Positions 3,740 through 36,138 of a stretch of DNA of 44,118 nt are shown one piece after another (positions within the stretch are counted from its first letter, which is position 1; each line of letters starts with the position of its first letter). The stretch comes from an uncultured Planctomycetaceae bacterium (GTDB lineage: Bacteria; Planctomycetota; Phycisphaerae; UBA1845; UTPLA1): positions 1 to 44,118 of the forward strand of contig CAZERK010000001.1 of NCBI GenBank assembly GCA_964514515.1, read 5' to 3'. The position numbers and the translations under genes were made by a program. The notes beneath the pieces were generated by a model. The model was given only the letters and a program-made list of their open reading frames with translations, was not told the origin of the DNA and made no database searches.

Positions 3740-3765
3740 GCGGACTCCTTTGATCCTCCAGACGT

Positions 3766-15497: not shown

Positions 15498-17063
15498 TCA
15501 ACCTTTATTGCCCGCTGGGTCGGCGGCCAGCGCCGCCAGAGGATCCAGTTGACAGAGCCACGCAAACGAATCGCGGACGCGCCCGAGCTCCTCGGGCGTC
15601 GGTTCCTTGTCCGTAGTCAGCAGCGCCTTGCGGCAGCGGTAGAGCGTCTGGGCCGCTTCGACCGCCAGGGCGGGCTCCCACTCGTCGATGTGGTAGCGCC
15701 GCAGTTCCTCGAAGCATTCCTCCAGGAGCGGCGCTGCCAGCGCCAGGCGCTGCGCGTCGTAGCAGAGCTGCGCGATGCGCAGCCGCCACAGGAAGCGGTC
15801 GCGCCGCTGCGCGCAGGTGCTCAGGCCGTCCTGCAAGATCTTGACCGCCTCCGCCAGCTTGCCCGTCCCCGCGAGCTTGCGGGCACCGTCCCAGGCTTCC
15901 ATGAGCTTGCCGTCGCCGGCCGCCCCCCCACCGCCGCCCGCGGACTGCGGCGGCGTGACGTCCGACTCGATCCACATCTTCGTCTCACCGCTGCACAGCG
16001 GCATGCCGTTGCGGAAGCGGAGATCGAACAGGCCGTTGCCGAGGCGGCGCACCAGTGCCCCCGTCAGATCCAGAATCGCGCGCCGCGCCAGTTCGAACTG
16101 CGGCCCGCGCGCCTGCAAAGCCGCACAGACGTAACGCTGTAGATCGAGCCACAAGGGGTCGCTCGAACGGAACGCATCCTCGGCGTTATTCAGCAGGTGA
16201 TCCCACAACCCGCCGGCAAACTGGAATTGCAGTGCTTCGGCCAGCGTCTTGTCCGGAGGTTCGACCTGCGTCATGACCTCGGGCGAGGGCAGTTCGATGC
16301 GGGCCCACTTCACGAGCCGCGCGAGCGCGTACGGCAGCGGATTCGCGAGGTCGGATTTCGCCAGGAAATTGGCCGCACTGAGCACGGCCTGGATCGCGCC
16401 GGACGCGTCGGCCACGGCCGCGATCGCGACGGCGCCTTCCGGCAGAACCGCGGCGGCACCACCTTCACCCACGGCGGGCGCCGCTACGGCCGGCTCGGCG
16501 GGCTTGGGCCGTTCGTTGGCGAGATCCCGGAGACGGCGCTGCAGTTTGGCGAAGTCCGGCGCGTCGTCCGGCATCTTCTCGGTGAGCAGCGTGTTCAGTT
16601 CTGCGAGGCGCTGCACGCAAGTGTCGACGGCGTCGAACTCGCTCGGACGCGGCTTGCCGTCGCCGCTGAGCCAGCCGGCGTCCACCAGATGCTCGCATAG
16701 GGATTCCATGCGGGCTTTGCGGCGGCGCGGCCGCGCGGGGAAACCGTTGTCCCAGAAGTTGCGGGACAGCTCGATGAACAGGCCGAGCGTGGCCGCGAGT
16801 CCGGCGTAGCGCTCCTTCTTGACCAGGCCGAAGCCGAGGGCGGTGGCGATGTGCGTGTCCTTGGACTTGCTGCGCAGGATGTTGCGAGCAGACTGATCGA
16901 CTTTGAACCAGTCGACCTCGCCCAGATCGATGCGATCGAGCTTCGAGAGCTCGGCCTCGATGAGCAGGTAGTCTTCGTCGTCGGCAACTTCCTGCCCAGC
17001 GGGCGCAGCATCGCTGATCGGGTTCCTGCCGAGGTCCAGAACTGCAGCTTCGTCGAGCGCCAT
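15498..17063 (-). CDS. tssA: Type VI secretion protein TssA (ImpA N-terminal domain family)
   Basis: 521 aa. ImpA_N-like N-terminus (LGRNPISDAAPAGQEVADDEDYLLIEAELSKLD...VDWFKVDQSARNILRSKSKDTHIATAL) and a helical C-terminal half. Located immediately upstream of tssB. Confidence 0.85.
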   Translation of the reverse strand: MALDEAAVLDLGRNPISDAAPAGQEVADDEDYLLIEAELSKLDRIDLGEVDWFKVDQSARNILRSKSKDTHIATALGFGLVKKERYAGLAATLGLFIELSRNFWDNGFPARPRRRKARMESLCEHLVDAGWLSGDGKPRPSEFDAVDTCVQRLAELNTLLTEKMPDDAPDFAKLQRRLRDLANERPKPAEPAVAAPAVGEGGAAAVLPEGAVAIAAVADASGAIQAVLSAANFLAKSDLANPLPYALARLVKWARIELPSPEVMTQVEPPDKTLAEALQFQFAGGLWDHLLNNAEDAFRSSDPLWLDLQRYVCAALQARGPQFELARRAILDLTGALVRRLGNGLFDLRFRNGMPLCSGETKMWIESDVTPPQSAGGGGGAAGDGKLMEAWDGARKLAGTGKLAEAVKILQDGLSTCAQRRDRFLWRLRIAQLCYDAQRLALAAPLLEECFEELRRYHIDEWEPALAVEAAQTLYRCRKALLTTDKEPTPEELGRVRDSFAWLCQLDPLAALAADPAGNKG

Positions 17064-17285: not shown

Positions 17286-18278
17286 TCAAGCTTTCACCGT
17301 TGAATCCACGAATCCAAACCACGTTTCGGGAGCGATCCCAGGCTCCACATCCTGACCATCGGCAGCATCGCCTATTGAACACAAGTCGTCTGCATACGGC
17401 ACTTTGTCGGCGAGGCCCGTCAGGAGCAAAAAGTCCTCGGGCAGAATCTCGTCGCGCGCGATTACGGTCAGGCGCCCCGTGGCGCCGCCGGCATCCTTCG
17501 TCAACAGAAGGCTCGCACAGCGACGATGCAGGTCCATGCGCTGACCGAGCCAGTGCAGCCAACCCGGCACCTGCACCTCGAACGGAACGCCCATGACCAA
17601 CGGAAAACGCAGCGTCGGTGCGAAGTCCTCCGCCTCGAGCGTCACAATGTTCTGCCCCCACGCCGTCACCTGCCCAGACCATGCGTCCAGCGCGGCGACC
17701 TTCAGGCAGGGCTGCGCACGTTGGAACCAGTCGCTCATGGAAAGCGCCTGCGCCGGCGCACGCCACGAGCCGTCGTGGGTCGCACCATCGAGGCCGGACA
17801 GGTCGATTTCGCGTCCGCCGAAGGTATCCTCGAAGCGCCCGGGCGAGTTGACGAAGCGCCCCACGTGCTCGCGCAGGTGCGTCAACTCGAGCAGCGCTCG
17901 GAGCACCGGCAGCACGGTCTCGCTGGTCGGCCCGGCCCAACCCTCCGTCGGCGTGGCGACGTAGAAGCTGAGGGGAAACGGACGCCCGCGCATATCGCCG
18001 CCGTAGTCCTGGAACGAGGCCAGGACGGAGACCTGCGACTTGGGCAGGCGCAGCAGGCACGCCGAGGACGGCACGCGCAGCTCGCCGCCGCTCTCGCGCT
18101 GACGACTGAAGTAGAGCTCGCAACCCTTCAGAATCCACTCGTTGAACTCGACTGCCCAATCCTCATCGGTGGGCGAACAATAGTAATCCGCATACGTCGG
18201 CAGTTTGCCGAACCAACGCACGCGCGGATCGGGTTTGATCCGCGGGGCCTTCGCCTTGAACAGGTTCTTCCAGCCCAT
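17286..18278 (-). CDS. tagF: Type VI secretion-associated protein TagF (ImpM/DUF2094 family)
   Basis: 330 aa. VRWFGKLPTYADYY matches the TagF hallmark G-x-x-GKLP-x-x-(G/A)D(F/Y) near the N-terminus. Canonical position directly after tssM. Confidence 0.75.
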   Translation of the reverse strand: MGWKNLFKAKAPRIKPDPRVRWFGKLPTYADYYCSPTDEDWAVEFNEWILKGCELYFSRQRESGGELRVPSSACLLRLPKSQVSVLASFQDYGGDMRGRPFPLSFYVATPTEGWAGPTSETVLPVLRALLELTHLREHVGRFVNSPGRFEDTFGGREIDLSGLDGATHDGSWRAPAQALSMSDWFQRAQPCLKVAALDAWSGQVTAWGQNIVTLEAEDFAPTLRFPLVMGVPFEVQVPGWLHWLGQRMDLHRRCASLLLTKDAGGATGRLTVIARDEILPEDFLLLTGLADKVPYADDLCSIGDAADGQDVEPGIAPETWFGFVDSTVKA

Positions 18279-18501: not shown

Positions 18502-21500
18502 CTACTTTCCGCTCGCGGCCGTCAGCGGGGCGATCGGCCCCGGCAGGGCCCGGCCCGGTGCGAGTTGGAAGATGAACTTCTCGCCGACGGTCTTCTCCAC
18601 GGCCGGAAGCTGCGTCGCCAGCTCCGGGCGACCGGCGTCCTTGAACTTGTCCGCCAGCGACACGCCGTGCGAGACGACCCAATTGCCGTCGGCGAACACG
18701 CCGTAGCGGTGCAGGTACGCACACAGCGCCAGCGGCGACGGGCGACCCAGCACCTCCGGCTTGATCGTCGGGTACGTATAGTTCTTGCCCTCGGGCGTGA
18801 CACCGTCCATGAGGGCGAAGGTCAACTCCTGCAGGTCCGGAGCGCGCGTCCATTCCCACACGGCCGGCATGCTCTTCGCCTTGCCGCGCTCGGTGGTCTG
18901 GAAGCACAGCGGACGCATGGCCGCGTCGCCGCCCTGCGACGGGCGCAGGCCGATGCTCAGGCAGACTTGCTTGTAGTAATGCTGGGCGGAGTCGTCGACC
19001 TTGACCAAGCCGAGCGGTGTGCCAAGCGGGTCCTCAGTCCAGAGCGTCACTTCGAGCCGCGTGGCCTCACCCTGCGCATTGAGCTTGAGGAAGTCGCGCC
19101 ACTGTCCGCAGGACTGCAGGAACGTCTGCCGCGCCTTGCGAACCGGCTCGTCGGGCAAGCCCTGATCGAGGGCACTGAACGCGGCCTCGGCCCGCTGCAT
19201 GGCGAGCAGGAACTTGCTGAACTGGTCGTAGGCGACGGTCTCCAGCGCGGTCAGACCGGTGCCGGCCGCGTTGACGTATGGCCAGCCGTCGTACGCGGAC
19301 TGATCGGCGAAGATGTCGGACTGCACGCCGACGAGGATCGCGGTCAATTCCGCACTGAGCAGCGTCTGCGCATTCTGCTGGAACTCGAAGAGCTGGCCGG
19401 TGAGGCGCTCATCGGACAGCCCGGTATCGCCGCGCAGGTCGGGGATGTCGGGCCAGGGAATCGGTGCGGCCTTGGCGGAAGGATCGTCGGTATCAAAGCG
19501 ACGCGCCAGCCTGGAGGCCTTGCCGACGGCGTTGCACCAATCGACCCAACGCGTCGCAAAGTTGCCGGCCACCGTCTCCCACGGCTTCGGGTCATTCGCG
19601 GTGCCGGTCGAATTCTTCGCACTGCGGGCGAATGCGCCGCCGGTCCACTGCTCCTGCAGGGCGGCATCGAACGCGCTGGCGGTCTTCGATTTGGCGGAGC
19701 CGTAGAAGTCGTCCTTTTGCTCCAGCCACCAGCCGCCGAGTTCGGCCGAGTACAGCGCCCAACGCGTGGCGTGCAGAATCTCGGCTAGGGCGGGCTGGAA
19801 TTCCTGCTGCACGGCATTGCGGGCTTCGTTGTCCGCAGCGCCGGCACTGAGCTTGAACTGCTCGGCGAACGTACCCCAACGCTGATCGAAGCGTCCGACG
19901 CGCTTGAGTTCGGGCGTGGCCTTCCCCTTGTAGGCCGTGGCCCACGACTCAGCATAGGTGCCGCAGTAGGTGCGCCAGGCCTGGTCGAGCAGGTCGCCGC
20001 AACGGCTGTGCAGCGGCGTCGCATCGCCGGTGCGCGAGAAGTAGTACTCGGGACCGAACTTGCTCAGGAAGCTGGCGAGTTCGACGTACTCCATCGCCCG
20101 CGCGTTGAGATAGTCGGGACTGGCGTAGGCCGGAATCTGGCCGGCGGCGGTGGCGCGCTCGGCCGGCGGCGGCGGAGCCGCGGGACCGGGCGTCGGCGCA
20201 CCGACGGGCGGCGGGGCCGTCGGTTTGGAGATCAAGGGCGGCGGACCACCGGCCGGCGGCTTCGTCACCGGCGGCGGTGCGGCGTCCGTCTTCTTCGGTT
20301 CCGGCGCCGGCGTCGCGGCAGCCGGAATCGGGATGTAGTAGTTCGACTTCAGTGCGGCCCGCGGGTCGGCGGCGAATTCGCCCAGGCCCAAAGGACCGGC
20401 GGCCTGCAGGCGCGCCTCGATCGTCCGCAGCAGGACGGTGCCGGCACCCTTGCGCACCAGGCCCTGGTACGCGTCGTTGAGCTTCTGCAGCTTCGCGCCC
20501 TCCCAGCGGGCATCGAGGGCCGTGAACGTCGCGGCGGGCGTATCGCTCTCCGCATCGCCCGGGTAGAGCAGGGCCTTGATTGCGGCGCTCCACTCGGCGG
20601 TCGTGGCGGCCTTCGCATCACCGCTGTCGAGCGTGGCGAGCTTGTCGGCCACCTTCTTGAGCACGGGGGCGATGGTGCCGTCGAGCTGCGTCGCGAGCTC
20701 GAGCTTGTCGTCGCGGGCGGCATCGGCGCCGCGCTTCAGCGTGATGATGTGCTTGTACGCCTCGTCGACTTCCTGCACAAGTTTGTCGAACGAGTCGCCG
20801 TAGTACTCGGGGAAGTACTCGCGGTCGGACAGGCCGGCCTGCTTGATGCTGTCGGCCAGGACGCGGTCGAGGCCGCGCAGGTCGGCACCGTTGCCGGCGA
20901 TGAGGGCGTTGATGGCCGCGGGCACCGGGTCCTTCGAGACTTCGCGCCCGCCGCAGGCTTCGTAGGCCGTCTGGAGCGCCTTCTGGCGATCGAGCCAGGC
21001 CTGCCGCTGAGCGCGGATGGCCTCGCGCAGCGACGGAATGCGCAGGAAGCCGGACTTGGCCGGCACTTGCCACGCGCACTCCTTCATCGCCGTGCTGAAC
21101 TTCCCGTAGTTCTCGTCGAAGGTCGCGCGGAAGGCCTTGAGCTGCTCGTCAGTCGTGACCGTCGCGTCGGCGGCGGCCAGGAGCGCCCCGTACGACTTCT
21201 CGATCTGGTCGCAGCGGTTGCGAATGCGCATCCACTCGGCGATCACCGGATCGAGCGCGTCCTCGCTGAGGGCGGCCGAGCGTTCGGCGTACTTGTGCAC
21301 GTGCCCCATCGCGAGCGTGATCGTCTCGCCGGGCTTGAACTCCGGCTCCGACAGCGGGTGCGCGGGGTTGCCGGCCTCCTTCATGCCGCGGATCGTGAGG
21401 AAGTAGTCCTTGGCCTGCTTGAGGATCTCGTCCTTCTGCTGGTTCAGCACGGTGTTGCCGGGTGAGATCAGCGCGGCGAGCTGCTCGAAGCTGTCGTAGT

Positions 21501-23280
21501 CGACCTGCTCGGGCAAGCCGTCGTGATCGGCGCAACCCAGCCATGCGACGTAGGCCAGCAGCGCGGCCTCATAGTCGTCAAAGCTCAACCCCGTCTTGGC
21601 GCCGGCGGCGATGTTGCCCGCACGCAAGGCGGCGTCAGCCTCCAGGAGAATCGGCTTGAGCACGCTGTGCGCGAACAGGCCGACCTGAATCTGCGTGAGG
21701 TCGTCGACAGGCTCGCGCGAACCGATGCCCAGCGACAGAATGCTCGGCCAGACACTGGCCTTGAGCGTCTGCACGTCCTGTCCAAGTTGGAGCGTGAGCT
21801 TGAGCGACTCGGTCGGTTTGCCGACGACGGCGGCCGCCTGCTCAGCGCGGGCGTGCGGCTCCTTGATGAGCGTGCCGAACTTCAGCGAGCTGATGATCAG
21901 GATGGCGACGAGCGCCACGCCGAGCACGCCGCTGCCGATCAGCAGGAAGCGGGCGAGCTGGCGGTTGCGCATGACCTCCTGCTCGTTGCGGAAAACGAGG
22001 CCCTGCTCGGGGAAGACTTTACGGAACAGGAGTTCCTTGACGAAGTGCGGCCGCGGGCGGGGATACAGGCTTTCCAGCGGCTGGAAGGTATTGGCGGCGG
22101 CGGCGCCGAGGCGCTCGGTCAGGTGGCGCAGGATGAGGCCGCCCTGCTGCGTGGCGCTGGTGAAGTACACGCCGCGGAAGATCAGGTTTTTGACCGCACG
22201 CGGGTTCTTGATGGCGGGGAAGAGCGTGCGGACATAGGTGTGCAGCGGTTCCTTGAGCTGGCGGAACTCCTCAGGGAAGCTGTAAGCGAGGCCGAGTTCC
22301 GCCTCGTCCACGTCGTCCTGCAGGCGGCGCAGGCGCAAGTCGCCGAGCCGGCCATACAGGGCGCCGAAGTCGTCGCCGAAGCGTTCGGGGTCGTACAGCT
22401 CGTTGAAGTCGCCGCTGCGCGAGAAGCCGAAGATCTGGTTCTTGATGGTGATGTCGCGCTCGGCGCGGTCGAAGAACGGCATGAAGCCGACGATCTTGTC
22501 GCACTTGGTGATGACGAGGTAGGTCGCGAACGTGACGCCGAGCTTGCTCTGCAGGTCGCGCAGGCGCTCGAGCATCGTGTTGGCATCCTGCTCGTGCTTC
22601 TCGGGCGGGTCCTGCAGCAGGTGCTCGGCCGACACGCACAAGAGCACGCCGTTGATCGGGTAGCCGCGGCGGCCCTGGCCGACGGTCTTAAGAAACGCGT
22701 CCCACTCGCGGTAGTCGGCGTCGTCCTGGGGATTGCACAGGCGGCCGGCCATGTCGACGAAGATGGCGTCCTCGGTGAACCACCAGTTGTAGTTCAGGGT
22801 GCCGAGCTGGTAGCCCTCGGGCTTGCCGGTGGAGAAGGTCAGGCCGCCCTCGTTGATCAGCTTGGTCTTGCCGCAGCCGGAGTCACCGATCGTCACGTAC
22901 CACGGCAGGTCGTAGACGCTGATCCCGAGCTTCTTCATCTCCTTGATTGCGGTGAAGAACTTCTCGTTGTTGCTCTTCACGGCCGCGCGCAGGCTCATCG
23001 AGACGGTGCCGCCCTCGGCGCTCGTCGCCAGCTCCGATTCCATGCGGCGCTGCCGGGCGCGCGAGGCCCGACCGAAGAGCTTCGGAACCAGCCAGCCGGC
23101 GACGGTGACGAGGCCCACCACGGCCGCCACGCCCAGAATCAGCACGAAGAGGCTCACGCCGGGAAAGACGTATTCGCGCAGGACGTAGATGATGCCGAAA
23201 GGCGTGCCCAGGCCCGCCATGGCGATGAGCATCTGGACTTCTTTGGGCAAGCTCCGGTAGGTCGCGAGCAGTTTCTTCAT
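18502..23280 (-). CDS. tssM: Type VI secretion membrane-complex protein TssM (IcmF family), unusually long at 1592 aa
   Basis: Two N-terminal TM helices. Walker A GDSGCGKT (22864-22887). A third TM (LARFLLIGSGVLGVALVAILIISSL). Then a periplasmic part of about 1100 aa containing a Pro-rich insert (about 20155-20330). ATG at 23278-23280 with GAGG upstream. Confidence 0.93.
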   Translation of the reverse strand: MKKLLATYRSLPKEVQMLIAMAGLGTPFGIIYVLREYVFPGVSLFVLILGVAAVVGLVTVAGWLVPKLFGRASRARQRRMESELATSAEGGTVSMSLRAAVKSNNEKFFTAIKEMKKLGISVYDLPWYVTIGDSGCGKTKLINEGGLTFSTGKPEGYQLGTLNYNWWFTEDAIFVDMAGRLCNPQDDADYREWDAFLKTVGQGRRGYPINGVLLCVSAEHLLQDPPEKHEQDANTMLERLRDLQSKLGVTFATYLVITKCDKIVGFMPFFDRAERDITIKNQIFGFSRSGDFNELYDPERFGDDFGALYGRLGDLRLRRLQDDVDEAELGLAYSFPEEFRQLKEPLHTYVRTLFPAIKNPRAVKNLIFRGVYFTSATQQGGLILRHLTERLGAAAANTFQPLESLYPRPRPHFVKELLFRKVFPEQGLVFRNEQEVMRNRQLARFLLIGSGVLGVALVAILIISSLKFGTLIKEPHARAEQAAAVVGKPTESLKLTLQLGQDVQTLKASVWPSILSLGIGSREPVDDLTQIQVGLFAHSVLKPILLEADAALRAGNIAAGAKTGLSFDDYEAALLAYVAWLGCADHDGLPEQVDYDSFEQLAALISPGNTVLNQQKDEILKQAKDYFLTIRGMKEAGNPAHPLSEPEFKPGETITLAMGHVHKYAERSAALSEDALDPVIAEWMRIRNRCDQIEKSYGALLAAADATVTTDEQLKAFRATFDENYGKFSTAMKECAWQVPAKSGFLRIPSLREAIRAQRQAWLDRQKALQTAYEACGGREVSKDPVPAAINALIAGNGADLRGLDRVLADSIKQAGLSDREYFPEYYGDSFDKLVQEVDEAYKHIITLKRGADAARDDKLELATQLDGTIAPVLKKVADKLATLDSGDAKAATTAEWSAAIKALLYPGDAESDTPAATFTALDARWEGAKLQKLNDAYQGLVRKGAGTVLLRTIEARLQAAGPLGLGEFAADPRAALKSNYYIPIPAAATPAPEPKKTDAAPPPVTKPPAGGPPPLISKPTAPPPVGAPTPGPAAPPPPAERATAAGQIPAYASPDYLNARAMEYVELASFLSKFGPEYYFSRTGDATPLHSRCGDLLDQAWRTYCGTYAESWATAYKGKATPELKRVGRFDQRWGTFAEQFKLSAGAADNEARNAVQQEFQPALAEILHATRWALYSAELGGWWLEQKDDFYGSAKSKTASAFDAALQEQWTGGAFARSAKNSTGTANDPKPWETVAGNFATRWVDWCNAVGKASRLARRFDTDDPSAKAAPIPWPDIPDLRGDTGLSDERLTGQLFEFQQNAQTLLSAELTAILVGVQSDIFADQSAYDGWPYVNAAGTGLTALETVAYDQFSKFLLAMQRAEAAFSALDQGLPDEPVRKARQTFLQSCGQWRDFLKLNAQGEATRLEVTLWTEDPLGTPLGLVKVDDSAQHYYKQVCLSIGLRPSQGGDAAMRPLCFQTTERGKAKSMPAVWEWTRAPDLQELTFALMDGVTPEGKNYTYPTIKPEVLGRPSPLALCAYLHRYGVFADGNWVVSHGVSLADKFKDAGRPELATQLPAVEKTVGEKFIFQLAPGRALPGPIAPLTAASGK

Positions 23281-25827: not shown

Positions 25828-26508
25828 TTACTCCGTCCCGTGCATCTTCCGCTCGGAAAGCACCTGAATGTATTGCGCCGCCTCGACGGGCTTGCTGTCG
25901 TCGACGCCGATCTTCACTTCGGTATCTGCAGCATACGCGCCCGGAGGATGGAACTTCGCCGGCGGCAGCGGCAGGACGCCCCCATCCTTGCCGATGAATT
26001 TCGGGAACACGTAGATCACGCCCCGCAGGTCGTGCAGGTCGCCCCACTTGTAGTCGAACGGGCCCTTCTTGATCGGCGTATCGCCGTCGAGGGCCGAGCC
26101 GCGGATCGCGTTGCCGATCTTGCGACCGTAGTAGGTCGAGTCGTTGGTGAGCACGAAGATCTGATTCTGCGGCAGGTTGAACTTGCCCGGATCGGTCGTG
26201 CCGGTCGTCGGGCGGCGATCGTACCAGTCCTTCACCGTGATCTTCGAATCCGGCTTGAGCAGCTCATTGCCGGGCTTGTCGAGATCCGGCGGATACACGC
26301 AGACGATCGTGAGTTCCAGCGGCTCGCCGGTGCGCTTCTCCGGCGGACGGTTGCCCTGCGCCCCCGTGTTGATGAAGCGATCCTGACGAATCGTGAGCGT
26401 GCGGCCGCAACCGGTCGCCGCGAGCGCGGCGGTCGCGAGAAGAAGGACGCTACCGGCGCGGAGGGTGGTAATGAGCTGGCGCGATAGACGCAGAGAAGGC
26501 AGATTCAT
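25828..26508 (-). CDS. tssJ: Outer-membrane lipoprotein in the tssJ slot (TssJ-like), 226 aa
   Basis: Internal ATG at 26506-26508, 2 nt after the stop of the upstream gene. MNLPSLRLSRQLITTLRAGSVLLLATAALAATGC is a signal peptide plus a lipobox-like A-T-G-C. The mature protein is beta-rich and lies directly upstream of tssK-tssL-tssM. The call rests on position and lipoprotein character, not on a motif I can verify. Confidence 0.55.
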   Translation of the reverse strand: MNLPSLRLSRQLITTLRAGSVLLLATAALAATGCGRTLTIRQDRFINTGAQGNRPPEKRTGEPLELTIVCVYPPDLDKPGNELLKPDSKITVKDWYDRRPTTGTTDPGKFNLPQNQIFVLTNDSTYYGRKIGNAIRGSALDGDTPIKKGPFDYKWGDLHDLRGVIYVFPKFIGKDGGVLPLPPAKFHPPGAYAADTEVKIGVDDSKPVEAAQYIQVLSERKMHGTE

Positions 26509-26510
26509 AG

Positions 26511-27689
26511 TCACACTCCGTGGGCGTAGGCTTCCGCAAGCTTCTGACTGCGCAGCTCGCGGATGTGCTGATGGAAGAGTTGATGCCCGTCGTCGCGAAT
26601 GAAATCCTTGACCTTGCGGTTCGGGTCGTTGCCCATCCCGACCGGGCCGCGCAGGTGCGTCTCGAGCTCCTGGGCGATGGACTCCAGCGCGCTGTCGCTG
26701 CCGAGAATGGCGGCCATGATCCAGCGCTTGAGACCGAGCAGGCGCATCTTGCACACGCCGGCCGGCTTGCCGTGCTCAGCATCGATGATCTCGCGGATCA
26801 CCTGGTTGAGATCCGGAGAGTGCGCGTAGACGTCCCAGGGCTTCGCGACCGTCTGGTTGTGCTTGGTAAAGCTGCCGAGGAACGGCGCAACCGCCTGGTC
26901 CAAATCGGCGACGAAACGCGTGAGTTCGATGACCGTATCGACGAGGCGTTCGGCTGCGGGCACGGGCGGGTTCTGGTTGCCCGGCGCGAGCGGCGGCTTG
27001 GCGCGTGCGAGGCGTTCCCACAACTCGCGCAGCACGATTTCGACGCCGCCGCCGGCGCCCTCCCGCGCGACGACAAGTTCGTTCTTGAGCCCCTCGATGA
27101 CCGCGTCTTTGTCCTTGCGCAACTGCTCGATATCGCCGCGCAGACGCTCGATCTCGACATTCTGCTCGCGGGAGCTTTCCGCCATGGCGTCGGTCCGCGA
27201 GGTATCGGCGGCGGCGCGCTCGGCACGCTGCAGCTTGATCGTGAGCGATTCGGCCTTGCTCTCCGCTTCGTGCAGCAGCGCATTCTTGGCGACGAGTTGT
27301 TCCTCGTATTCCGCGACCTGCTGTTGAGCGGTCTGCAAACGCGTGCGCTGATCGGCGACGATGCGGTCGAGTTCGGTCGCGCGCTGCTGCTCGGCTTCGA
27401 GTTGCTTGGCGCGGAGCGACAGATCCGCCTTGGTCGCGGCCAGCGTATCTTCGAGCGAGGCCTTCTCTTCCCCCAACCGCGTGGCCTTCTTGGAAAGGGC
27501 GTCGAGACGCTCGCGGTCGGCGCCGTCCCCCTTGGCGGCGGCTTGGTCGGCGAGCTCCGTCAGCAGCGCTGCGAGCACGCGGTAGCGCTGGGCTTCGGGC
27601 GCCTGCGCAAGCGCAGCGCGCACCGGCTCCAAGAGCGTAAGCGCGCCCGTGTCTGGTGCACTGTCCCGACGTTGTTCCGTCACGGGCAC
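26511..27689 (-). CDS. Coiled-coil protein (392 aa) of unknown family occupying the position that Fha holds in related T6SS loci
   Basis: GTG at 27687-27689 with GAAAGG upstream. Residues about 45-215 are heptad-like and E/K/Q/A/L-rich (KASLEDTLAATKADLSLRAKQLEAEQQRATELDRIVADQRTRLQTAQQQVAEYEEQL...). A C-terminal globular part of about 175 aa follows. I find no FHA signature. The stop lies 2 nt before the tssJ ATG (TGA-ct-ATG). Confidence 0.75.
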   Translation of the reverse strand: MPVTEQRRDSAPDTGALTLLEPVRAALAQAPEAQRYRVLAALLTELADQAAAKGDGADRERLDALSKKATRLGEEKASLEDTLAATKADLSLRAKQLEAEQQRATELDRIVADQRTRLQTAQQQVAEYEEQLVAKNALLHEAESKAESLTIKLQRAERAAADTSRTDAMAESSREQNVEIERLRGDIEQLRKDKDAVIEGLKNELVVAREGAGGGVEIVLRELWERLARAKPPLAPGNQNPPVPAAERLVDTVIELTRFVADLDQAVAPFLGSFTKHNQTVAKPWDVYAHSPDLNQVIREIIDAEHGKPAGVCKMRLLGLKRWIMAAILGSDSALESIAQELETHLRGPVGMGNDPNRKVKDFIRDDGHQLFHQHIRELRSQKLAEAYAHGV

Positions 27690-27836
27690 TGCCAGCCTTT
27701 CTTTACATCAGTATTTGTGGCCCAATACGGCGCGACCTACCACACCCACGAGTCCAATGTGCGCCGGTCATCCGCCGCGCGCTTCGCGCCGCGGAGCGGT
27801 CGATACACGTCCGGTCTCGCCGCAATTGACACTCGA

Positions 27837-27865
27837 ACTATATCCACACTAATGGGACCCGGCAA
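27837..27865 (-). promoter_or_regulatory. Sigma70-like promoter candidate (minus strand) between the pseudokinase gene and the coiled-coil/tssJ genes
   Basis: Minus-strand reading: TTGCCG (27860-27865), 17-nt spacer, TATAGT (27837-27842). It lies in a locally AT-richer 232-nt spacer. Confidence 0.3.
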
Positions 27866-27921
27866 GCCCAGTATGGCCGCGCGGACACCGCGCCACAGTC
27901 CCCCGCAAGCGCCGCGCGCGA

Positions 27922-30900
27922 CTAGCGCGGCAGCACGCGCAGGACCGGACGGACTCCCGTCAGCTCGTCACCAAAACGAGCGTCACGAGCCTGCAACACG
28001 AGGGGGTTGCTCAGCCATTTCCACATTTCGGACGAATTTAGCGGCTTCTTGGGCGGTGGCGGCAGGATTGTCTCCTGCTCCCGAATCTTGCGCGTCACGC
28101 CGCCGCACGCGAGCGTCGCATCGGTACCCGCGCCGGTACACCACTCGCGCAGGCCGCCGAAGAGGTCGGCCGGTGCATTCGCCCCCCAGCGCAGCGCCGC
28201 CAACACCCACTCGTCAACGGTCGGCACGACTCGACCGAGTTGCGTCGCCGCCGCCGTCGCCTCCGCGAAAGCGCCGGATACGGATACTTCCTTCTCATCT
28301 ACGTAGTAGAGCGTCCACGGACGCTCCGGTGCGGCGGCCGTCTCCGTCAGGTGCGCAAGCGTCGCAGGCGGTGCGGCTTGGTCCGCCACGCTCTTCCACA
28401 ACCCGTCCTGAGGCGGAATCGACACGAGACGCAGACGGTTGCCCTGGCCGTCACGCAAGTTCGTCGGATAGCCGGAGACGGGATCGCGGTCGCTCTCTGC
28501 CGCGTAACCGCGCGTCGCCAGCGCCGCCTGCTGTTCGTCCCACGGCGGCGGCAGCAGCGTCGCCGACTTGAGCAGCGCGGTCGCATCGGCGTCATCGGGA
28601 AGGTTCGTCAGCAACGGCGTGACTTCGGCCAGACGCGGACGCCAGTCCGCCACCGCCTCGCCCCGCAGAGTCTTGTCTACGTCGCCACGCAGCACCTGCA
28701 CCACGGTCTTCAGCGACGCGCGAGCCGCATCCGCCAATTTCGCCAGCGCCGTCGCGTTGTCGGGCGACGGCCCCCAGCGCTCGCCACTGTGCTCCATGGT
28801 CAGGTCCTGGGCTACGGATTCGGCACCCGAGCGCAGGTTCACGCGGAGGGAGAAAGTCACGCGCTCGTCGCCGGCCGAACGTACGTTGGCGTACATCGCC
28901 GAGCCGGGAACCATCAGGTTGGCGACCACCGTCGAGGCTTGCGCCGCCAAGGGGTCTCCGCTCGGGCTCAACTCACGCAGCAGGTTCGCGTTGTCGGCTT
29001 TGGCACCGAAGCGCTCCGGCGCGGCCCCGATGTAGGCGGCGAATTGCTGAGTCCAATCGACCGTCTTCACTGGAGGCGGCTCGGGCGGAGGTTCCGGCTT
29101 GTCCGGCTCCTGCACGGCGACGGGCTCTGGCGGTGTCGGCGCCGTCGCAGTGGGTGGCGCAGAGTCGGCGGTGGTAGCGACGGGCGGGTTCACCGGCGGT
29201 GCGGGCTGCGGAGGCGGCGTGCCTCCACGCAGCGCGAAGAACAGGATCGCGGCCACTGCGGCGACCGCGGCAACACCTCCGCCAATGACGAACCCACGCC
29301 TGCTGCCCGCGGGACGCGGTTTCGCGGCCGCAGCTTTCTCTGTGGGCCGTTCTTCGGGCGTCGCGGCAGCCGGCTTCGGCGCCCGGACGGGCTTGGGCGG
29401 CGGCGGTGCGACCGGGGGCGGCGCGGCAGCCGACACGGCCGGCGCGCTGCCTGCAGCCGCTCCGAACTTCTGCTCCCACCCCGCGGGAAGCTCGTACACC
29501 AGCTTCGCGGGACTCCAGACCGCTCTGAGGACGAACGCCTCGCCGCTCTTGGGTTTGATATCGAAGCCAATCTCGGCGAGCGCGACCTTGCCCTGACGAG
29601 GAACCGTCACTTTTGCAGCGGATGGTGCGGCCTTGGCGACCGCCTTGATCTGCTCGCCCGCCGCTTCGCGCCAATGCGACTGCAGCTCGACGATGCGCTC
29701 GCGCAGATGCGTCTCGAACTCCGCGAGCGATTCGAGCGTCGCGCGGCCGGCGTCCTCGACGGTAACCGTCGTCGCGAAAATGACTTCGGGCTCGCCGCCG
29801 GCCGGATGCAGCGCGATTGCCACGTCGCCATCGAGCGTCGTCGGCAGTTCCGGCTCGGTGTGAACCGGCGTGAGCCGCACGCGAAGCACGTCCTTGTACG
29901 TCCGGGCTAGTTCGGAGCGGGCCACAAGGTCCTGCACGATGGCCGCGCCGGCCGCCTGCTTGGCCACGTCGGTGGCTTGCGCCACAAACGCCCGGCGATC
30001 GGCCGGCTCCCAGGTCAACGATTCCGGCAGCCACACCAACTCCAGCGGCCCGCGCCCCTCCGCCGCGTCCGGCCCCAGGAGCGCCAGCTCAGCGGTCACG
30101 CGCGGGCCCGGCTTTGCCATCTCCGCACGCACAGTCGCACGGGGGAACATGGTGCCCTGAAGCCACTTCTCGAACGTGCCAAGGCGGGATTTCTGCAGGT
30201 CCGGCAATTGCTCCAGCAGGCCAATCCCGATCTGTGTCGCGAAGGTCTCCTGCTCGCCGCAGAGCTGGACGCCGTCTTCGCGCACGCGGAAATCCAGTTC
30301 GCCGATCAGCGGCGGCGCGTCGAAACGCTCCCCTGCCGGCCGCAGGGCGACCCGCACGCGAGCCCGAGCGTCAGCGTCGATGTCCGGCGGCGCCCAGGTG
30401 ATGAATTCGACGGCCGTTTCGATGGCTTTCGACTGAACCAGCCCGGCCAGCTCGCCCTCCGCCAGCGGCTGGAGTACGCTGTCGGCCGCGACGCGCATGC
30501 TCTCGGTCAGCGCGTCGATGTTGGTGGCGGCGTCGTCGACGAGCCGGGTCCGGCAGATGAGCACGAGCGCGGCAGCCTCGTCTTTGAGCCCGGCGGGCCA
30601 GTGCTGCAGTTGCGGCTCCTGGTCGAGCACGTCCAGGGCCGCGTCCCAGCGCGTCTGCTCGATCAGTTCCTTGGCTTTGGCGACCCATGCCCGCGCCGCG
30701 GCGTGCTGGTCGGCCATCTCGCGACGGAGGCGGTCCTGCTGCTCCTGGTGGGCGGCGTACTCCTGCTCGACGGCCGTCACGGACGCCTGCAGGTCCTCCG
30801 GCCAACTCTCCAGAGGCGGCTTCTGCCCCAGCAGCTTGGCGACGCCGGACCAGTTGCGCGCGGCCGCCGTCTTCTGCAGGATCTTCAGCCACGACTGGGC

Positions 30901-32154
30901 CTTGCGCAGGCCCTGGCTCTGCGCGATCTTCGCCGCCAATGGTTCGAGCGCGGCCAGCACGTCCGGCGGCCAGGCGTCGACTTGCGGCTTTTCGCTGAGG
31001 AGGTTTTGGGCCTTCTCCCATTCGCCGGCGCTGACGGCGTTCTGCAGGCGGCCGAACCACTTGGCCACCGCCTGTAACTCCGCCTCAGCAGCGGCTTTGC
31101 GACCTTCCTCCGCCAGCCCCTCGCGGGCCCGAGTCTCGAGCGTGTGAGCCTGGGCACGCTGCTCGGCGGTCATGATCTCCAGCGGCGGGCGGAGATCGAG
31201 GACGGCATCAAGTTCGGCCCAGACGCGCCCGGCCAGCAGTTGTTCAACCTGGGCGAGCCAGCGCTGCACCTTTACGTTGTTCAGGTCGACAGCCGGCGCG
31301 ACGGCAAGCAAGCGCTGGGAGATCGCCGCGGCCGATGGGCGGTCACCGGGCAGGCGGGCCAGCATGGCCGTGACGAGTTCGAGCCACGCCCGGACCGAAG
31401 AATCGGACGATTGGGTCAGGGCATCCCGACTCGGCGCCGCGGGAATGCCGAACCCCATCATGCGGGCCATGTCGACGACGCGATGCGCCTCGGGCTCGAA
31501 GTACAGATACGGATGCACGTGCTCGGCGAACAGGGCCGCAACCATGCCCGCCGCGACGATGTCCGAGCCGGTCTCAAAGCTGGCGAGGGTTTCCGACCCG
31601 TACTTGTCCGGATCGATGTACGCGCACAGCCGATCGTCGCGGTCCACCACGCTCAGCGGCAGGACCTCCCAAGCCCCGGTGCCGGTGGCGTGCGGCCGAA
31701 CGGCCAGATTGAGGTACGGATCCACACCGAGGGTCTTGCAGACGGCCGGGGCAAAGCCGAAATCCGTCACGCGCGGCAGGCCGTCGACGCCCATCAGAAG
31801 AACGCCTGGGCACAGCCCGCCGTGGACGACCGTCCGCGCACCGCCGCCGCCATGGGCAGCGGCCAGGGCATCCGCCAGCGCCACGAGCAGGCGGACCAAC
31901 TCGGCCGGCTCCATGAGCGGCTTGGACGGATCAAACAGGTCGGCAGCATTCAGGGGCGTGGCCGGCTCGTGGGCGACCGACAACACTCCGTCTTGCTCTT
32001 CGAGTGGCCCGACAAAGCGCAGGATATAGGGTGAATTGGCCGCCAAGCGGTTCTGGGCGTGGACGGCATCCTGGAGCGCGTCCGCCAGGCGCGCCGTACG
32101 CTCGGCGTCGACTGTGGCGGGTGGCAGAATCAGGCGTCGAAATCCGTCAGACAT
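27922..32154 (-). CDS. Single-pass membrane protein (1410 aa): degenerate Ser/Thr-kinase-like (pseudokinase) domain, W-x12-W-x15-WP helical repeats, TM helix, Pro-rich linker, C-terminal FGE-sulfatase-like (TagR-like) domain
   Basis: The ORF track gives 27922..32358. I prefer the ATG at 32152-32154 (MSDGFRRLILPP), because the 68 upstream codons are Pro/Arg-rich; the start is uncertain (weak RBS). Kinase-like blocks: VVHGGLCPGVLL (in place of HRDLKPxN), RVTDFGFA, YIDPDKYG, DIVAAGMVAALF, LPGDRPSAAAISQRL. TM: GFVIGGGVAAVAAVAAILFFAL (29230-29295). C-terminus: YYVDEKEVS...GRVVPTVDEWVLAALRWG...LFGGLREWCTG...LACGG...TGVRPVLRV. Confidence 0.75.
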   Translation of the reverse strand: MSDGFRRLILPPATVDAERTARLADALQDAVHAQNRLAANSPYILRFVGPLEEQDGVLSVAHEPATPLNAADLFDPSKPLMEPAELVRLLVALADALAAAHGGGGARTVVHGGLCPGVLLMGVDGLPRVTDFGFAPAVCKTLGVDPYLNLAVRPHATGTGAWEVLPLSVVDRDDRLCAYIDPDKYGSETLASFETGSDIVAAGMVAALFAEHVHPYLYFEPEAHRVVDMARMMGFGIPAAPSRDALTQSSDSSVRAWLELVTAMLARLPGDRPSAAAISQRLLAVAPAVDLNNVKVQRWLAQVEQLLAGRVWAELDAVLDLRPPLEIMTAEQRAQAHTLETRAREGLAEEGRKAAAEAELQAVAKWFGRLQNAVSAGEWEKAQNLLSEKPQVDAWPPDVLAALEPLAAKIAQSQGLRKAQSWLKILQKTAAARNWSGVAKLLGQKPPLESWPEDLQASVTAVEQEYAAHQEQQDRLRREMADQHAAARAWVAKAKELIEQTRWDAALDVLDQEPQLQHWPAGLKDEAAALVLICRTRLVDDAATNIDALTESMRVAADSVLQPLAEGELAGLVQSKAIETAVEFITWAPPDIDADARARVRVALRPAGERFDAPPLIGELDFRVREDGVQLCGEQETFATQIGIGLLEQLPDLQKSRLGTFEKWLQGTMFPRATVRAEMAKPGPRVTAELALLGPDAAEGRGPLELVWLPESLTWEPADRRAFVAQATDVAKQAAGAAIVQDLVARSELARTYKDVLRVRLTPVHTEPELPTTLDGDVAIALHPAGGEPEVIFATTVTVEDAGRATLESLAEFETHLRERIVELQSHWREAAGEQIKAVAKAAPSAAKVTVPRQGKVALAEIGFDIKPKSGEAFVLRAVWSPAKLVYELPAGWEQKFGAAAGSAPAVSAAAPPPVAPPPPKPVRAPKPAAATPEERPTEKAAAAKPRPAGSRRGFVIGGGVAAVAAVAAILFFALRGGTPPPQPAPPVNPPVATTADSAPPTATAPTPPEPVAVQEPDKPEPPPEPPPVKTVDWTQQFAAYIGAAPERFGAKADNANLLRELSPSGDPLAAQASTVVANLMVPGSAMYANVRSAGDERVTFSLRVNLRSGAESVAQDLTMEHSGERWGPSPDNATALAKLADAARASLKTVVQVLRGDVDKTLRGEAVADWRPRLAEVTPLLTNLPDDADATALLKSATLLPPPWDEQQAALATRGYAAESDRDPVSGYPTNLRDGQGNRLRLVSIPPQDGLWKSVADQAAPPATLAHLTETAAAPERPWTLYYVDEKEVSVSGAFAEATAAATQLGRVVPTVDEWVLAALRWGANAPADLFGGLREWCTGAGTDATLACGGVTRKIREQETILPPPPKKPLNSSEMWKWLSNPLVLQARDARFGDELTGVRPVLRVLPR
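27925..28449 (-). other. FGE-sulfatase-like (SUMF1/TagR-like) periplasmic domain at the C-terminus of the 1410-aa protein
   Basis: The order and spacing of its blocks resemble the FGE-sulfatase family: (E)VS, LPT-x-(D/E)EW-x-x-AAR-x-G (here VPTVDEWVLAALRWG), G-x-x-(W)EW (here GGLREWCTG), a GG block, and a terminal G(F/V)R-x-V (here GVRPVLRV). Confidence 0.55.
31300..32037 (-). other. Pseudokinase domain of the 1410-aa protein (H-G-G replaces H-R-D at 31816-31824; DFG retained at 31756-31764)
   Basis: Direct reading of codons: GTC GTC CAC GGC GGG CTG TGC CCA GGC GTT = VVHGGLCPGV. No GxGxxG loop or VAIK-type Lys context is visible in the roughly 45 residues upstream. Confidence 0.65.
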
Positions 32155-32223
32155 CCGTAGCGACACTCGGTTTAGGTTACGGGCGGACCGGCCGGGTCCC
32201 CGCGGCGCGACAGTATCCCGTAA

Positions 32224-32239
32224 TTCGCGCGATCGCGAA
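32224..32239. promoter_or_regulatory. Palindromic element in the divergent T6SS / envelope-module intergenic region (candidate operator)
   Basis: TTCGCG-cgat-CGCGAA (32224-32239), containing the perfect 10-bp palindrome CGCGATCGCG (32228-32237). It lies about 70 nt upstream of the pseudokinase start. Confidence 0.35.
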
Positions 32240-32290
32240 AGGCGGTGCGGCGGAGGCGGCACGGCCGGGGGGGTGGCGGGCAGTTCACCC

Positions 32291-32319
32291 TTGACGCTAG
32301 GCAGGGGGTGGCGTAGCGT
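32291..32319 (+). promoter_or_regulatory. Sigma70-like promoter candidate for the plus-strand envelope module
   Basis: TTGACG (32291-32296), 17-nt spacer, TAGCGT (32314-32319), about 80 nt upstream of the ATG at 32400. Confidence 0.3.
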
Positions 32320-32399
32320 TAACGTGGGAAGGTTGGGCTTCGAGGACCAAACACACATCAGTACGGACCCCGGTAACTTCCCTAGCAGAGGAGTGTGCG

Positions 32400-32794: not shown

Positions 32795-32873
32795 GCACGC
32801 TCGCCCAGTCGACTAACCGAAGGGCGGCGACCTTGGCGAGTCTATCGCCGCGTTGCGCGGCGCGGGACGTGAC

Positions 32874-34850
32874 ATGAGCCCCAGCAAAACACTTCGCTTT
32901 GGCCTGTTCATCGCGATGACGGTCTTCGCCGGCGCCGCGCTCGCCCAAGAGCCCCCACCGCCCGAATCCGGCGCGGCGTTGGTCGAATTGAACCGGGCCA
33001 TTCGCGCCTACACGGCCGAAGACCGCGACACGGCGGCGCAGCTCCTCGAAGGTCTGCTCGCCCGCGAACCCACGGCCGAACTGCGTGTGAGCTGCTACTA
33101 CTACCTCGGCTTGATCGGTCTGGAGCGCGGCTTGGGCCATGCGGCCGCCGCCCAGATCGCCCGCACGCAGGAGAATCCGGAGCAGGCGACGGCGGAAGCC
33201 GGGCTCGCCCGTACGGAATTCGAGGCGGCACAAAAGCATTTCGAGGCGGTCGTGCAGCTCGCCGACCCGACCGCGGAAATCGTGTCCGCGGCGCTGATGC
33301 TGGGCATCTCCCAGCTCGCCAGCGACTTCCCGGAGGAAGCGTTGTCCGCCCGCAGCCTGTCAGAGCGCGCCGCCCAGACGCTGGCCCGCTACACCGGCGA
33401 AACGGACTACGGCGCGAAGGACCGTTACGGCTTTTTCTATCTCGCCGTGGCACGCTACCGCCTGGCCGACGACTACCGCGATCAGGCCAGTCGCCAGAAA
33501 GAGTACAAGGCGATGCTGGAGGGCGCGCAGGAAGCGCTCGATCGCGCCCAGACGTTGGCAGACGAAGACCTCGCGCTCGGCAAACTGACGCCCGTCGGCC
33601 TCGAGGCGTTCCGCACGGTCGTGGCCTACTACGAGGGGCTGCTGGCGATCGTGCGCAGCGACCATCCGGGGGCACGCAAGCTCTTCAGTGACGTCGCCAG
33701 CCGCGCCGAGGGCACGGACCTCGCCCGCAACGCCAGCGCCATCGTCAACCGCCTCGATGAAGTCGAAGCAACGAACCCGCCGCGCATCCAGTTGCCGGTG
33801 CCGGCGCCCATCGGGCCTTGGGAGTTCGACGCCCGCCTGCGCATCGGCAATGGCTACGACTCCAACGTCGTGCTGCTGGGCAAGGACACGACTCTACCGC
33901 GGAGCTATCGGCGGCAGGACGACTACTTCGCCGGCATTCACGCGGACTTCAATCTCAGCCGCTACATCCCGAAGTCGGAAGCCCCCTGGGTCGGCGAGAG
34001 CCTGACGGTCGGCATGGGCGGCGGCGTCAGCGCGACGTGGCAGCCGAACGTGACGCAGTTCGACGTCAACCGCTACCCGGGCCGCGCGTACGTGAACTGG
34101 CAGCCGATCCGCGACCTGTACTTCGGTCTGCAATACGAGTACTCGTACACGCAACTCGGACACGAACCGTACATCTCCAGCCAGCGGCTGTCGCCCGTCC
34201 TGTCGAAGATCTGGCGCACCAAGAGCACCAGCGGCACCGAGCTCGAGGCGGGGCGCACGGACGTGTACTACACGCACGACGAGCGCAACTATATGGATCG
34301 CCTAAGCGACGTCCGGCTGAACCGCGACGGCGTATACCAGGCGATCGGCGTGCAGCACACGTTCAACCTGTGGCGCAGCGAAGAACTGGCGTACATGCGG
34401 CCGTACTTCGATGCGCACGCCCGCGAGCGGACGCTATTCGGCAACGACTGGCTGAGCTTCACGCTGGGCTACGAGTACCGCGACGAGCAGACGGTCGGCA
34501 CGGAGTTCGACCTGTGCGGGCACGCCATGACGTGGGGGCTGAACGTGCCGCTGCCGTACCGGCTGGCGTTCCAGGCGCGCGGTGAGTTCTCGTGGGCGGA
34601 CTACCAGGCGGCGAGCCTGTTCGATTTCAGCCGCCAGGAACGCGCCGACTTTCTGCAGCGCTACGATCTGAGTGTGGTGTACTGGCTGATTCGCCGCGGC
34701 GAGGACGCGAACCTCCGCACGCTGGACGTCCGCTTGCGGACCGGCGTGGAATTCACGTTCCAGAACTCGAACATCTGGAACCGCCTCGGCGAGGACATCT
34801 ACGAATACGACCGGGCGATCTACGGCGTAACGCTGGAAGTGGACTTCTAG
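32874..34850 (+). CDS. Outer-membrane protein: signal peptide, roughly 300-aa TPR-like helical domain, C-terminal beta-barrel ending in Phe
   Basis: ATG at 32874 (the track start, TTG 32853, is also possible). MSPSKTLRFGLFIAMTVFAGAALA-QE is a signal peptide. The helical Ala/Leu/Glu-rich N-half has Y/L-spaced repeats. From PWEFDARLRIGNGYDSNVVLL onward there are alternating-hydrophobicity strands rich in Y/W/G/N. The terminal YGVTLEVDF is a typical OMP C-terminal signature. Confidence 0.75.
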   Translation: MSPSKTLRFGLFIAMTVFAGAALAQEPPPPESGAALVELNRAIRAYTAEDRDTAAQLLEGLLAREPTAELRVSCYYYLGLIGLERGLGHAAAAQIARTQENPEQATAEAGLARTEFEAAQKHFEAVVQLADPTAEIVSAALMLGISQLASDFPEEALSARSLSERAAQTLARYTGETDYGAKDRYGFFYLAVARYRLADDYRDQASRQKEYKAMLEGAQEALDRAQTLADEDLALGKLTPVGLEAFRTVVAYYEGLLAIVRSDHPGARKLFSDVASRAEGTDLARNASAIVNRLDEVEATNPPRIQLPVPAPIGPWEFDARLRIGNGYDSNVVLLGKDTTLPRSYRRQDDYFAGIHADFNLSRYIPKSEAPWVGESLTVGMGGGVSATWQPNVTQFDVNRYPGRAYVNWQPIRDLYFGLQYEYSYTQLGHEPYISSQRLSPVLSKIWRTKSTSGTELEAGRTDVYYTHDERNYMDRLSDVRLNRDGVYQAIGVQHTFNLWRSEELAYMRPYFDAHARERTLFGNDWLSFTLGYEYRDEQTVGTEFDLCGHAMTWGLNVPLPYRLAFQARGEFSWADYQAASLFDFSRQERADFLQRYDLSVVYWLIRRGEDANLRTLDVRLRTGVEFTFQNSNIWNRLGEDIYEYDRAIYGVTLEVDF

Positions 34851-35982: not shown

Positions 35983-36138
35983 CGTCCAACGAAATCGATC
36001 GCAGGGTCGCGCCAAACAGGCGCGGCGGTGCGGTCCGCAAGTGAGGATGGTCTGAGGCCGCAAGGGAGTGCGGACCGGCGGGGTTGGTGCACGTGGCTGC
36101 GCCCGCTCTCGGCCGCAATCCGTCGTGGAGGTCTGGTC

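Follow-up and report, generated by a model that had tools for sequence, protein, structure and literature searches.

The window analysed here, a stretch of 44,118 nucleotides from an uncultured Phycisphaerae bacterium (contig CAZERK010000001.1, positions 1 to 44,118), carries on its minus strand a complete type VI secretion system (T6SS), with all 13 core genes found and, apart from these, a gene for a 392-residue coiled-coil protein (the target) that directly precedes the gene of the lipoprotein in the TssJ position. Judged from its homologues, the target is a real, conserved protein of a small orphan family with one fixed architecture. We tentatively propose, at a little under even confidence, that it is a lineage-specific cytoplasmic accessory subunit that serves as a phosphorylation-independent scaffold at the TssJLM membrane complex, in a role like that of TagH.

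Architecture and family of the target protein

26511..27689, minus strand: target coding sequence, 392 amino acids (aa), GTG start, TGA stop; from the open reading frame (ORF) listing and translation
27537..27650, minus strand: conserved N-terminal helical region, residues 14-51, LLxPLRAAL...PExERYRLLAxLLxxLA; from alignment and AlphaFold2 (AF2)
27006..27521, minus strand: coiled coil, residues 57-228, helices 57-159 and 164-228; from AF2, periodicity and alignment
26964..27005, minus strand: proline-rich hinge, residues 229-242, KPPLAPGxxxP, with P232 and P241 invariant; unstructured in AF2
26514..26963, minus strand: orphan helical C-terminal domain, residues 243-392; AF2 helical over 243-390, predicted helical bundle
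26506..26519, minus strand: junction with the lipoprotein gene; GGAG 26516-26519, TGA 26511-26513, 2-nt spacer, ATG 26506-26508
27837..27865, minus strand: sigma-70-like promoter match, the sole one in the 232-bp gap between the pseudokinase and target genes; 1 found against 0.2 expected, weak evidence

The GTG start of the target is backed by homologues that begin at the same site (MPV...) in the family alignment. With a G+C content of 64-70% the window contains many long shadow ORFs. In the target frame, GC at third codon positions (GC3) is 0.83, compared with 0.87-0.92 in the neighbouring T6SS genes, and this pattern is mirrored in a 683-aa antisense ORF at 26520-28571 (GC1 0.83, GC3 0.74), which settles the target strand as the coding one. 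Homologues also match the target, and the antisense ORF was rejected as a real gene and classed as a shadow ORF. The junction, read on the minus strand, is CAC GGA GTG TGA CT ATG, with GGAG placed 7 nt upstream of the ATG (26508) of the next gene, a 226-aa ORF, confirming the 392-aa ORF of the first-pass annotation with its stop 2 nt ahead of the ATG in the tssJ slot. As to its further claim of translational coupling, tight spacing is common in other loci but not universal: the target and lipoprotein genes overlap by 4 nt in L001, L004, L042 and L044, whereas 55-82 nt separate them in L002, L003, L040 and L041.

AF2, using a 32-sequence alignment (mean pLDDT 75), predicts an all-helical target in which short helices (residues 14-19, 21-28 and 32-51) precede two long ones (57-159 and 164-228), with pLDDT >90 over about residues 70-140 of the coiled coil. 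The heptad-rich region of about 170 residues described at first pass is thus recovered as the two long helices, with significant periodicity in the first only: the hydrophobic 3.5-residue periodicity of residues 57-159 exceeds all but 0.05% of shuffles (p=0.0005), and that of helix 164-228 as a whole is not significant against shuffles (p=0.3). Read by eye, residues 62 to 156 have hydrophobic core positions spaced 3-4 residues apart, and the family alignment shows the sequence of the coiled coil to be conserved along its length. Between the two helices, residues 161-168 (window about 27186-27209) form a helix break with a moderately conserved GD(T/S)SRxD motif, possibly hinging the otherwise unbroken coiled coil or serving as a modification site. 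The C-terminal globular part, whose quoted sequence is present in the ORF, is the predicted helical bundle; in family alignments W285 is invariant family-wide and Y288, W323 and D332 are nearly so. A check for transmembrane (TM) segments and hydrophobicity found neither a TM segment nor a signal peptide in the target, which by its sequence is a soluble protein. Tat or Sec export was considered and rejected, as the target lacks a hydrophobic segment and family members do not conserve its N-terminal RR.

A word-indexed search of 5.8 billion proteins returned 40 full-length homologues (45-99% identity), all of about 390 aa and all named hypothetical, and the named sources among them are Phycisphaerae metagenome-assembled genomes (MAGs). 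In the family alignment they match over their full length at 45-89% identity, and each of the three parts, the coiled coil among them, has conserved residues. An exhaustive HMMER search with a C-domain profile yielded 62 clusters among 1.84 billion cluster representatives, family members only, whose full-length members are all 360-410 aa long with the C-domain at the same place; a second profile, built with the most divergent members (21-25% identity) in it, added nothing beyond the family among the cluster representatives. A scan of 185,579 species genomes (GTDB) gave 27 loci, all from Phycisphaerae/Planctomycetota MAGs. Within reach of these searches, the C-domain is found in no other architecture or lineage. 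When L001-L031 are compared with the window, two subclades of the family can be told apart by the motifs RPWDVYARSP...AYxHG(V/G) and VPWDVYAKRDD...FGRGG, and the split coincides with the orientation of the pseudokinase gene described below, co-directional versus divergent.

Searches against known families were negative throughout. Pfam gave no match to the full target, and NCBIfam gave coiled-coil noise only, with SMC-type scores of 17-23 bits against cut-offs of 200-729 that were confined to the coiled coil. Membership of the SMC or SMC-related families, which are marked by scores above the curated cut-offs and by an ATPase head and hinge, was rejected on these low scores; the similarity is compositional. 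When 26 isolated C-domains were run against Pfam at E<=10 nothing consistent emerged, the noise types across the library scans being SMC, HmpF and CCDC93. Sequence profiles of the PDB likewise returned coiled-coil noise only (best E 0.07 for the full length and 0.28 for the C-domain). The Foldseek search of the C-terminal domain suggested at first pass found no fold match in the PDB (best E 7, and 1.3 for the full model), a negative whose weight is limited by the moderate confidence of the AF2 models (pLDDT about 75; pTM 0.33 for the full protein and 0.56 for the C-domain).

The T6SS cluster and the TagH position

The other genes of the cluster are as follows.

3766-6387, minus strand: VgrG
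6471-9221, minus strand: ClpV
between ClpV and TssA, minus strand: TssG, TssF, TssE (12301-12738), Hcp, TssC and TssB
15498..17063, minus strand: TssA, long form; Pfam and NCBIfam
17286..18278, minus strand: TagF-like protein, 330 aa, without PP2C fusion; orthologues match PF09867 TagF_N, window copy without Pfam match
18502..23280, minus strand: TssM, 1592 aa; TM about 15-60 and 445-463, cytoplasmic 61-444, periplasmic ~1130 aa
23369..24190, minus strand: TssL (DotU), one C-terminal TM segment
24187..25611, minus strand: TssK, 473 aa; Pfam T6SS_VasE 3e-66, TIGR03353 2e-69; length set from homologues
25828..26508, minus strand: TssJ-position lipoprotein, 226 aa, conserved lipobox; divergent TssJ candidate

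The order target-lipoprotein-TssK-TssL-TssM-TagF-like-TssA is kept in every locus with enough downstream sequence, and each complete locus has a TagF-like gene. Synteny extends to the most divergent members (21-25% identity), the target being followed by a 189-aa gene, TssK and TssL in L034 and by a 186-aa gene, TssK, TssL and TssM in L044. Reverse look-ups anchored on TssK gave a target homologue of 393-398 aa two genes upstream in 3/3 cases. In L040 the target lies at a divergent junction opposite hcp-tssE-F-G-clpV, and since this locus splits off the latter genes, the intact unit is target-J-K-L-M-TagF-TssA. By the operational definition of a T6SS-associated gene (TAG), one conserved in the clusters and outside the 13 core components, the target is a TAG on this genomic evidence. 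The survey of co-occurrence with tssJ-like and tssK genes that had been advised therefore bears out the view of the target as an uncharacterised T6SS accessory component, linked to the T6SS in every locus and with no known Tag family detected.

The first-pass assignment of the downstream gene to the tssJ slot is only partly sustained. Its position agrees, and a signal peptide with lipobox (..ATGC|G) is kept in 30 orthologues, but Pfam found no TssJ match in 11 members tested, and comparison with two TssJ sequences by hhalign gave weak similarity (probability 7%, E 0.005, 59 columns just past the lipobox). That the 226-aa lipoprotein is a divergent TssJ is plausible, on an assignment that is positional. 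It is larger than the ~150-aa TssJ and has a conserved motif C-x-R-T-L-T-I-x-Q-D-x-Y-I-N-T right after the lipobox. TssM, at 1592 aa, is about 400 aa longer than usual; across loci its cytoplasmic domain (61-444) is very conserved (mean distance 0.28) and its periplasmic part (~1130 aa) evolves very fast (mean distance 1.52). The N-terminal FGKLP and D..GR.[FY]P motifs of the TagF-like protein, read by eye, resemble the Fha-binding loops described in Pseudomonas TagF, and are kept although no Fha is detected.

Comparison with annotated clusters supports well, at the level of gene order, that the target occupies the TagH/Fha position. On a Pseudoalteromonas plasmid a divergent Ser/Thr kinase gene is followed by tagH-tssJ-(tssK)-tssL-tssM-tagF-PP2C-tssA-tssB-tssC-tssC-tagJ-tssE-tssF-tssG-clpV-hcp-vgrG, and the window runs from the pseudokinase gene through target-J-K-L-M-TagF-TssA-B-C-Hcp-E-F-G-ClpV-VgrG. 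Gene by gene the two are collinear, with three differences: the target stands in place of tagH, there is no PP2C gene, and the kinase differs. An annotated Rhodobacter cluster reads tagH-tssJ-tssK-tssL; both clusters have tagH in what the first-pass annotation had called the Fha slot.

The target is nevertheless not a detectable TagH, and no nearby gene encodes an FHA protein. As controls we used annotated tagH genes from five proteobacterial plasmids (L035-L039). Four of them (L036-L039) carry FHA plus T6SS_FHA_C (PF20232), the latter at 1e-42 to 1e-49, and the Rhizobium FHA protein (L035) matched only the FHA domain in Pfam. FHA (PF00498), T6SS_FHA_C and TIGR03354 had no match in the target, with 26 members tested by Pfam at E<=10, and when the family profiles were compared with the TagH alignment by hhalign, the probability was 0.1%. 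Custom hidden Markov models (HMMs) of FHA and FHA_C recovered all five TagH controls at 1e-33 to 1e-80 (FHA HMM 1e-43 to 1e-49) and found none at E<=10 in six-frame ORFs of the window and 37 related loci. The initial reading that no FHA motif could be placed is thus upheld by Pfam, NCBIfam and custom HMMs, and the sensitive profile search it called for detected neither a cryptic FHA domain nor a known Tag family.

Likeness to TagH/Fha1 (PF00498 plus PF20232; TIGR03354) is therefore one of setting and layout. Both genes lie before tssJ-tssK-tssL-tssM-tagF and near a PpkA-type gene, and both products are soluble cytoplasmic proteins of similar size in which a C-terminal domain of ~150-180 aa follows a long non-globular middle. 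The target differs in having no FHA domain, no T6SS_FHA_C domain and no profile similarity to TagH; its middle is a conserved coiled coil, whereas that of TagH is a low-complexity linker; and its neighbour kinase is catalytically dead, with no PP2C found.

The pseudokinase neighbour and the missing phosphorylation chemistry

27922..32358, minus strand: membrane pseudokinase, 1478 aa, PpkA-like fold, one TM segment at 1023-1041, periplasmic C-terminus

The gene upstream of the target encodes a protein with ~1000 cytoplasmic residues and a weak kinase-fold match in profile libraries. Homologues occur in L001-L031 (e.g. L003:6827-9733). When 25 of them were aligned with two real PpkA kinases, the catalytic-loop motif HxDLKPxN was HGGLCPGV in 25/25, with the Asp, Lys and Asn lost; neither the glycine-rich loop nor the beginning of the N-lobe is present, and DFG is kept. 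On these alignments the 1478-aa protein is a conserved pseudokinase, in agreement with the first-pass description of the upstream sensor. One homologue has a C-terminal FGE-sulfatase domain (2e-13), a family that we take to be COG1262. TagR, the periplasmic activator of PpkA, is listed as COG1262 (PMC13584744), and the homologue looks like a PpkA-TagR fusion with catalysis lost. A precedent for a membrane-anchored pseudokinase in a secretion machine is YukC/EssB, presented as a central component of type VIIb secretion (bioRxiv 10.1101/2020.05.09.085852); as it is an unrelated protein of another secretion system, it bears on the pseudokinase neighbour by analogy only.

Pfam found no PP2C domain in the window ORFs scanned, and the TagF-like gene has no PP2C fusion. 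With the kinase dead, PP2C absent and the FHA reader absent, all three phospho-dependent parts have changed together in this lineage, and this is the strongest circumstantial argument that the module persists without phosphorylation. The H1-type threonine phosphorylation pathway (TagQRST-PpkA-PppA-Fha1-TagF) shares with the window its module layout, the presence of TagF and a membrane kinase-fold protein, at least one homologue of which has a periplasmic FGE-sulfatase domain. It differs in its chemistry, HxDLKPxN having become HGGLCPGV, with no PP2C in the window ORFs scanned and no FHA domain. With a dead neighbour kinase and no PP2C, the target cannot work by reading phosphothreonine. Fha has also been argued to have a phosphorylation-independent core role (Lin et al., PMC5995506), which is one that a non-FHA protein could take over.

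Several observations were made beside the main subjects. Pairs of 56-72-aa ORFs lie next to the pseudokinase gene in L001, L004, L041 and L042. Beyond the pseudokinase the window has a divergent gene set that may be a further conserved companion module of the T6SS:

32853-34850, plus strand: 665-aa protein without Pfam match; homologues in 16 related loci
34909-35982, plus strand: 357-aa protein without Pfam match; homologues in 8 related loci
36028-40815, plus strand: 1595-aa protein with TSP3/CARDB repeats

At the other end of the cluster, a 753-aa ORF (1736-3997, minus strand) follows vgrG directly and, as listed, overlaps the 3' end of that gene. Pfam gave no match to this ORF and the related loci fetched contain no homologue; it is a candidate cargo or effector gene.

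Co-evolution and possible roles

Co-variation of the target with its neighbours was assessed by a mirror-tree analysis with partial Mantel tests on Kimura distance matrices from 20 loci, with TssK and TssL regressed out. The target correlates with TssM (partial r=0.68, p=2e-4), the lipoprotein (partial r=0.58, p=2e-4) and, in 14 loci, the pseudokinase (partial r=0.43, p=0.008). No significant correlation was found with the TagF-like protein (partial r=0.09), whose overall rate is similar to that of the target. The lipoprotein correlates with TssM (partial r=0.82, p=2e-4), which is a positive control only if the lipoprotein is TssJ. As expected, it is the periplasmic part of TssM that the lipoprotein follows (0.87), and not the cytoplasmic one (0.25). 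Within the target, only the coiled coil tracks the TssM cytoplasmic domain (0.46). The results hint at a ranking of the membrane-complex module above TagF as the partner of the target.

In the role we tentatively favour, the target would probably oligomerise through its coiled coil and probably act as a scaffold or adaptor that needs no phosphorylation. Placed on the cytoplasmic side of TssJLM, it would license or position baseplate and sheath assembly, as TagH does elsewhere. Where the membrane pseudokinase is present, it would feed its input to the target by protein-protein contact and not through phosphothreonine binding. A more elaborate version, which we consider unlikely, would make the module a phosphorylation-free descendant of the threonine-phosphorylation switch. 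Here an envelope signal would make the TM pseudokinase, at least one homologue of which has a TagR-like periplasmic sensor domain, cluster or alter its conformation. The pseudokinase would then recruit the target by direct contact, and the target in turn would nucleate membrane complex and baseplate there. The FHA reader would thereby have undergone a non-orthologous replacement, one that co-occurs with lost kinase catalysis and an absent phosphatase.

A number of points weigh against the scaffold role. A position shared with tagH is not the same as a shared function, and from tagF alone no Fha analogue can be deduced, because TagF-containing clusters without Fha are known that use other partners, TagF there acting through Hcp and TagZ (Engelin et al., bioRxiv 10.64898/2025.12.08.692957). 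The Acinetobacter 'TSA' context of that work (TagZ, TagX, TagN, TslA, TsmK) is like the window in having TagF without an FHA protein and a lineage-specific accessory set instead; it differs in that a PpkA-derived pseudokinase is retained here and that the target is a soluble coiled-coil protein, as opposed to the membrane-bound TagZ. None of these five proteins was recognised when the window ORFs were scanned with Pfam, no search having been aimed at them. In the co-evolution analysis the C-domain of the target, which correlates with the lipoprotein (partial r=0.58), tracks the periplasmic part of TssM (0.61) and not the cytoplasmic part (0.14), and because a target without export signal co-varies with periplasmic TssM, the signal may fit shared lineage-specific acceleration at least as well as contact. 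The pseudokinase gene is directly adjacent upstream in about 21/27 assessable loci, co-directional in one subclade and divergent in the other; none is found in the 4.6-10 kb upstream in L005, L006, L010, L011, L012 and L025 (the upstream sequence of L006 and L010 encodes housekeeping genes, e.g. PheS and oxidoreductases), nor in the 6 kb upstream in L040, where the divergent hcp operon lies. Being missing upstream in 7 loci, the sensor is not an obligatory link in cis, and from gene neighbourhoods the invariant association of the target is with the tssJ-like/K/L/M genes, that is with the membrane complex and baseplate, and not with the sensor. Finally, every family member comes from uncultured MAGs.

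This invariant linkage, set against a pseudokinase that is not always adjacent, also suits a protein that does no more than brace the membrane complex or baseplate (cf. TsmK, TagL). It would stabilise the unusually large complex that TssM and the TssJ-like protein form in this lineage and have no part in pseudokinase signalling. The often tight spacing or overlap of the target and lipoprotein genes, the strongest partial correlations being those with TssM and the lipoprotein, and the size of TssM (1592 aa) with its fast-evolving periplasmic part all agree with such a brace. It is, in our view, somewhat unlikely: without a TM segment or signal peptide, the target has no way to reach the periplasmic parts with which it co-varies best, and with all 13 core components present there is nothing obvious for it to replace.

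The length and conserved sequence of the coiled coil would also be suited to a tether or ruler in a firing or sheath coordinator working with TssA or ClpV (cf. TagA/TsmA, TagB/TsmB, TagJ), and the gene of a long-form TssA belongs to the same co-directional string; among the ORFs of the window that were scanned, none was detected as a homologue of TagJ or TagA. The target gene is, though, at the membrane-complex end, 5 genes from tssA, and the protein has no TPR domain, no membrane anchor and no ImpA_N (PF06812) in Pfam, a domain for which the TssA at 15498-17063 scores 2e-20, making this role improbable. A partner or recruiter of TagF, as a counterpart of the TagF-binding surface of Fha or of Acinetobacter TagZ controlling a TagF checkpoint, is rated just as low. 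A TagF-like gene accompanies the target in every complete locus, and TagF binds Fha in Pseudomonas and Agrobacterium (PMC5995506) and TagZ in Acinetobacter (bioRxiv 10.64898/2025.12.08.692957), but no residual co-variation with TagF is seen, the target has no membrane anchor, unlike TagZ, and it has no sequence similarity to TagH. That the target is itself a cryptic, highly diverged TagH/Fha with its FHA domain lost or degraded is hardly credible and was rejected: the shared slot, the similar length (392 aa against 346-441 aa) and a C-domain near T6SS_FHA_C in size (about 150-180 aa) are outweighed by the profile, hhalign and custom HMM negatives, and the 170-residue coiled coil has no counterpart in TagH.

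The literature on T6SS in Phycisphaerae, Planctomycetes or Planctomycetota yielded no description of an accessory set, and that on pseudokinases with T6SS no description of a T6SS pseudokinase. A 2026 review describes none of the TAGs it tabulates as a soluble coiled-coil protein, and describes T6SS-i as confined to Pseudomonadota (PMC13584744). The target is a new accessory family in a known kind of system, and its module a variant of threonine phosphorylation without its chemistry; it is not new in category, since T6SS accessory genes confined to one lineage are common. Almost all knowledge of T6SS biology comes from Pseudomonadota and Bacteroidota, and the window shows a complete T6SS-i-like machine in Phycisphaerae, whose control module has the PpkA/PppA/Fha/TagF layout without a catalytic kinase, phosphatase or FHA reader and with a new coiled-coil protein in the reader's place. 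If the target is only a lineage-specific brace, it adds one more variable accessory gene to a long list. If it is an assembly scaffold, the core job of Fha would be achievable without phospho-signalling, and these clusters would offer a natural comparison by which scaffolding and signalling by Fha could be told apart, a distinction left open in Pseudomonas and Agrobacterium (PMC5995506).

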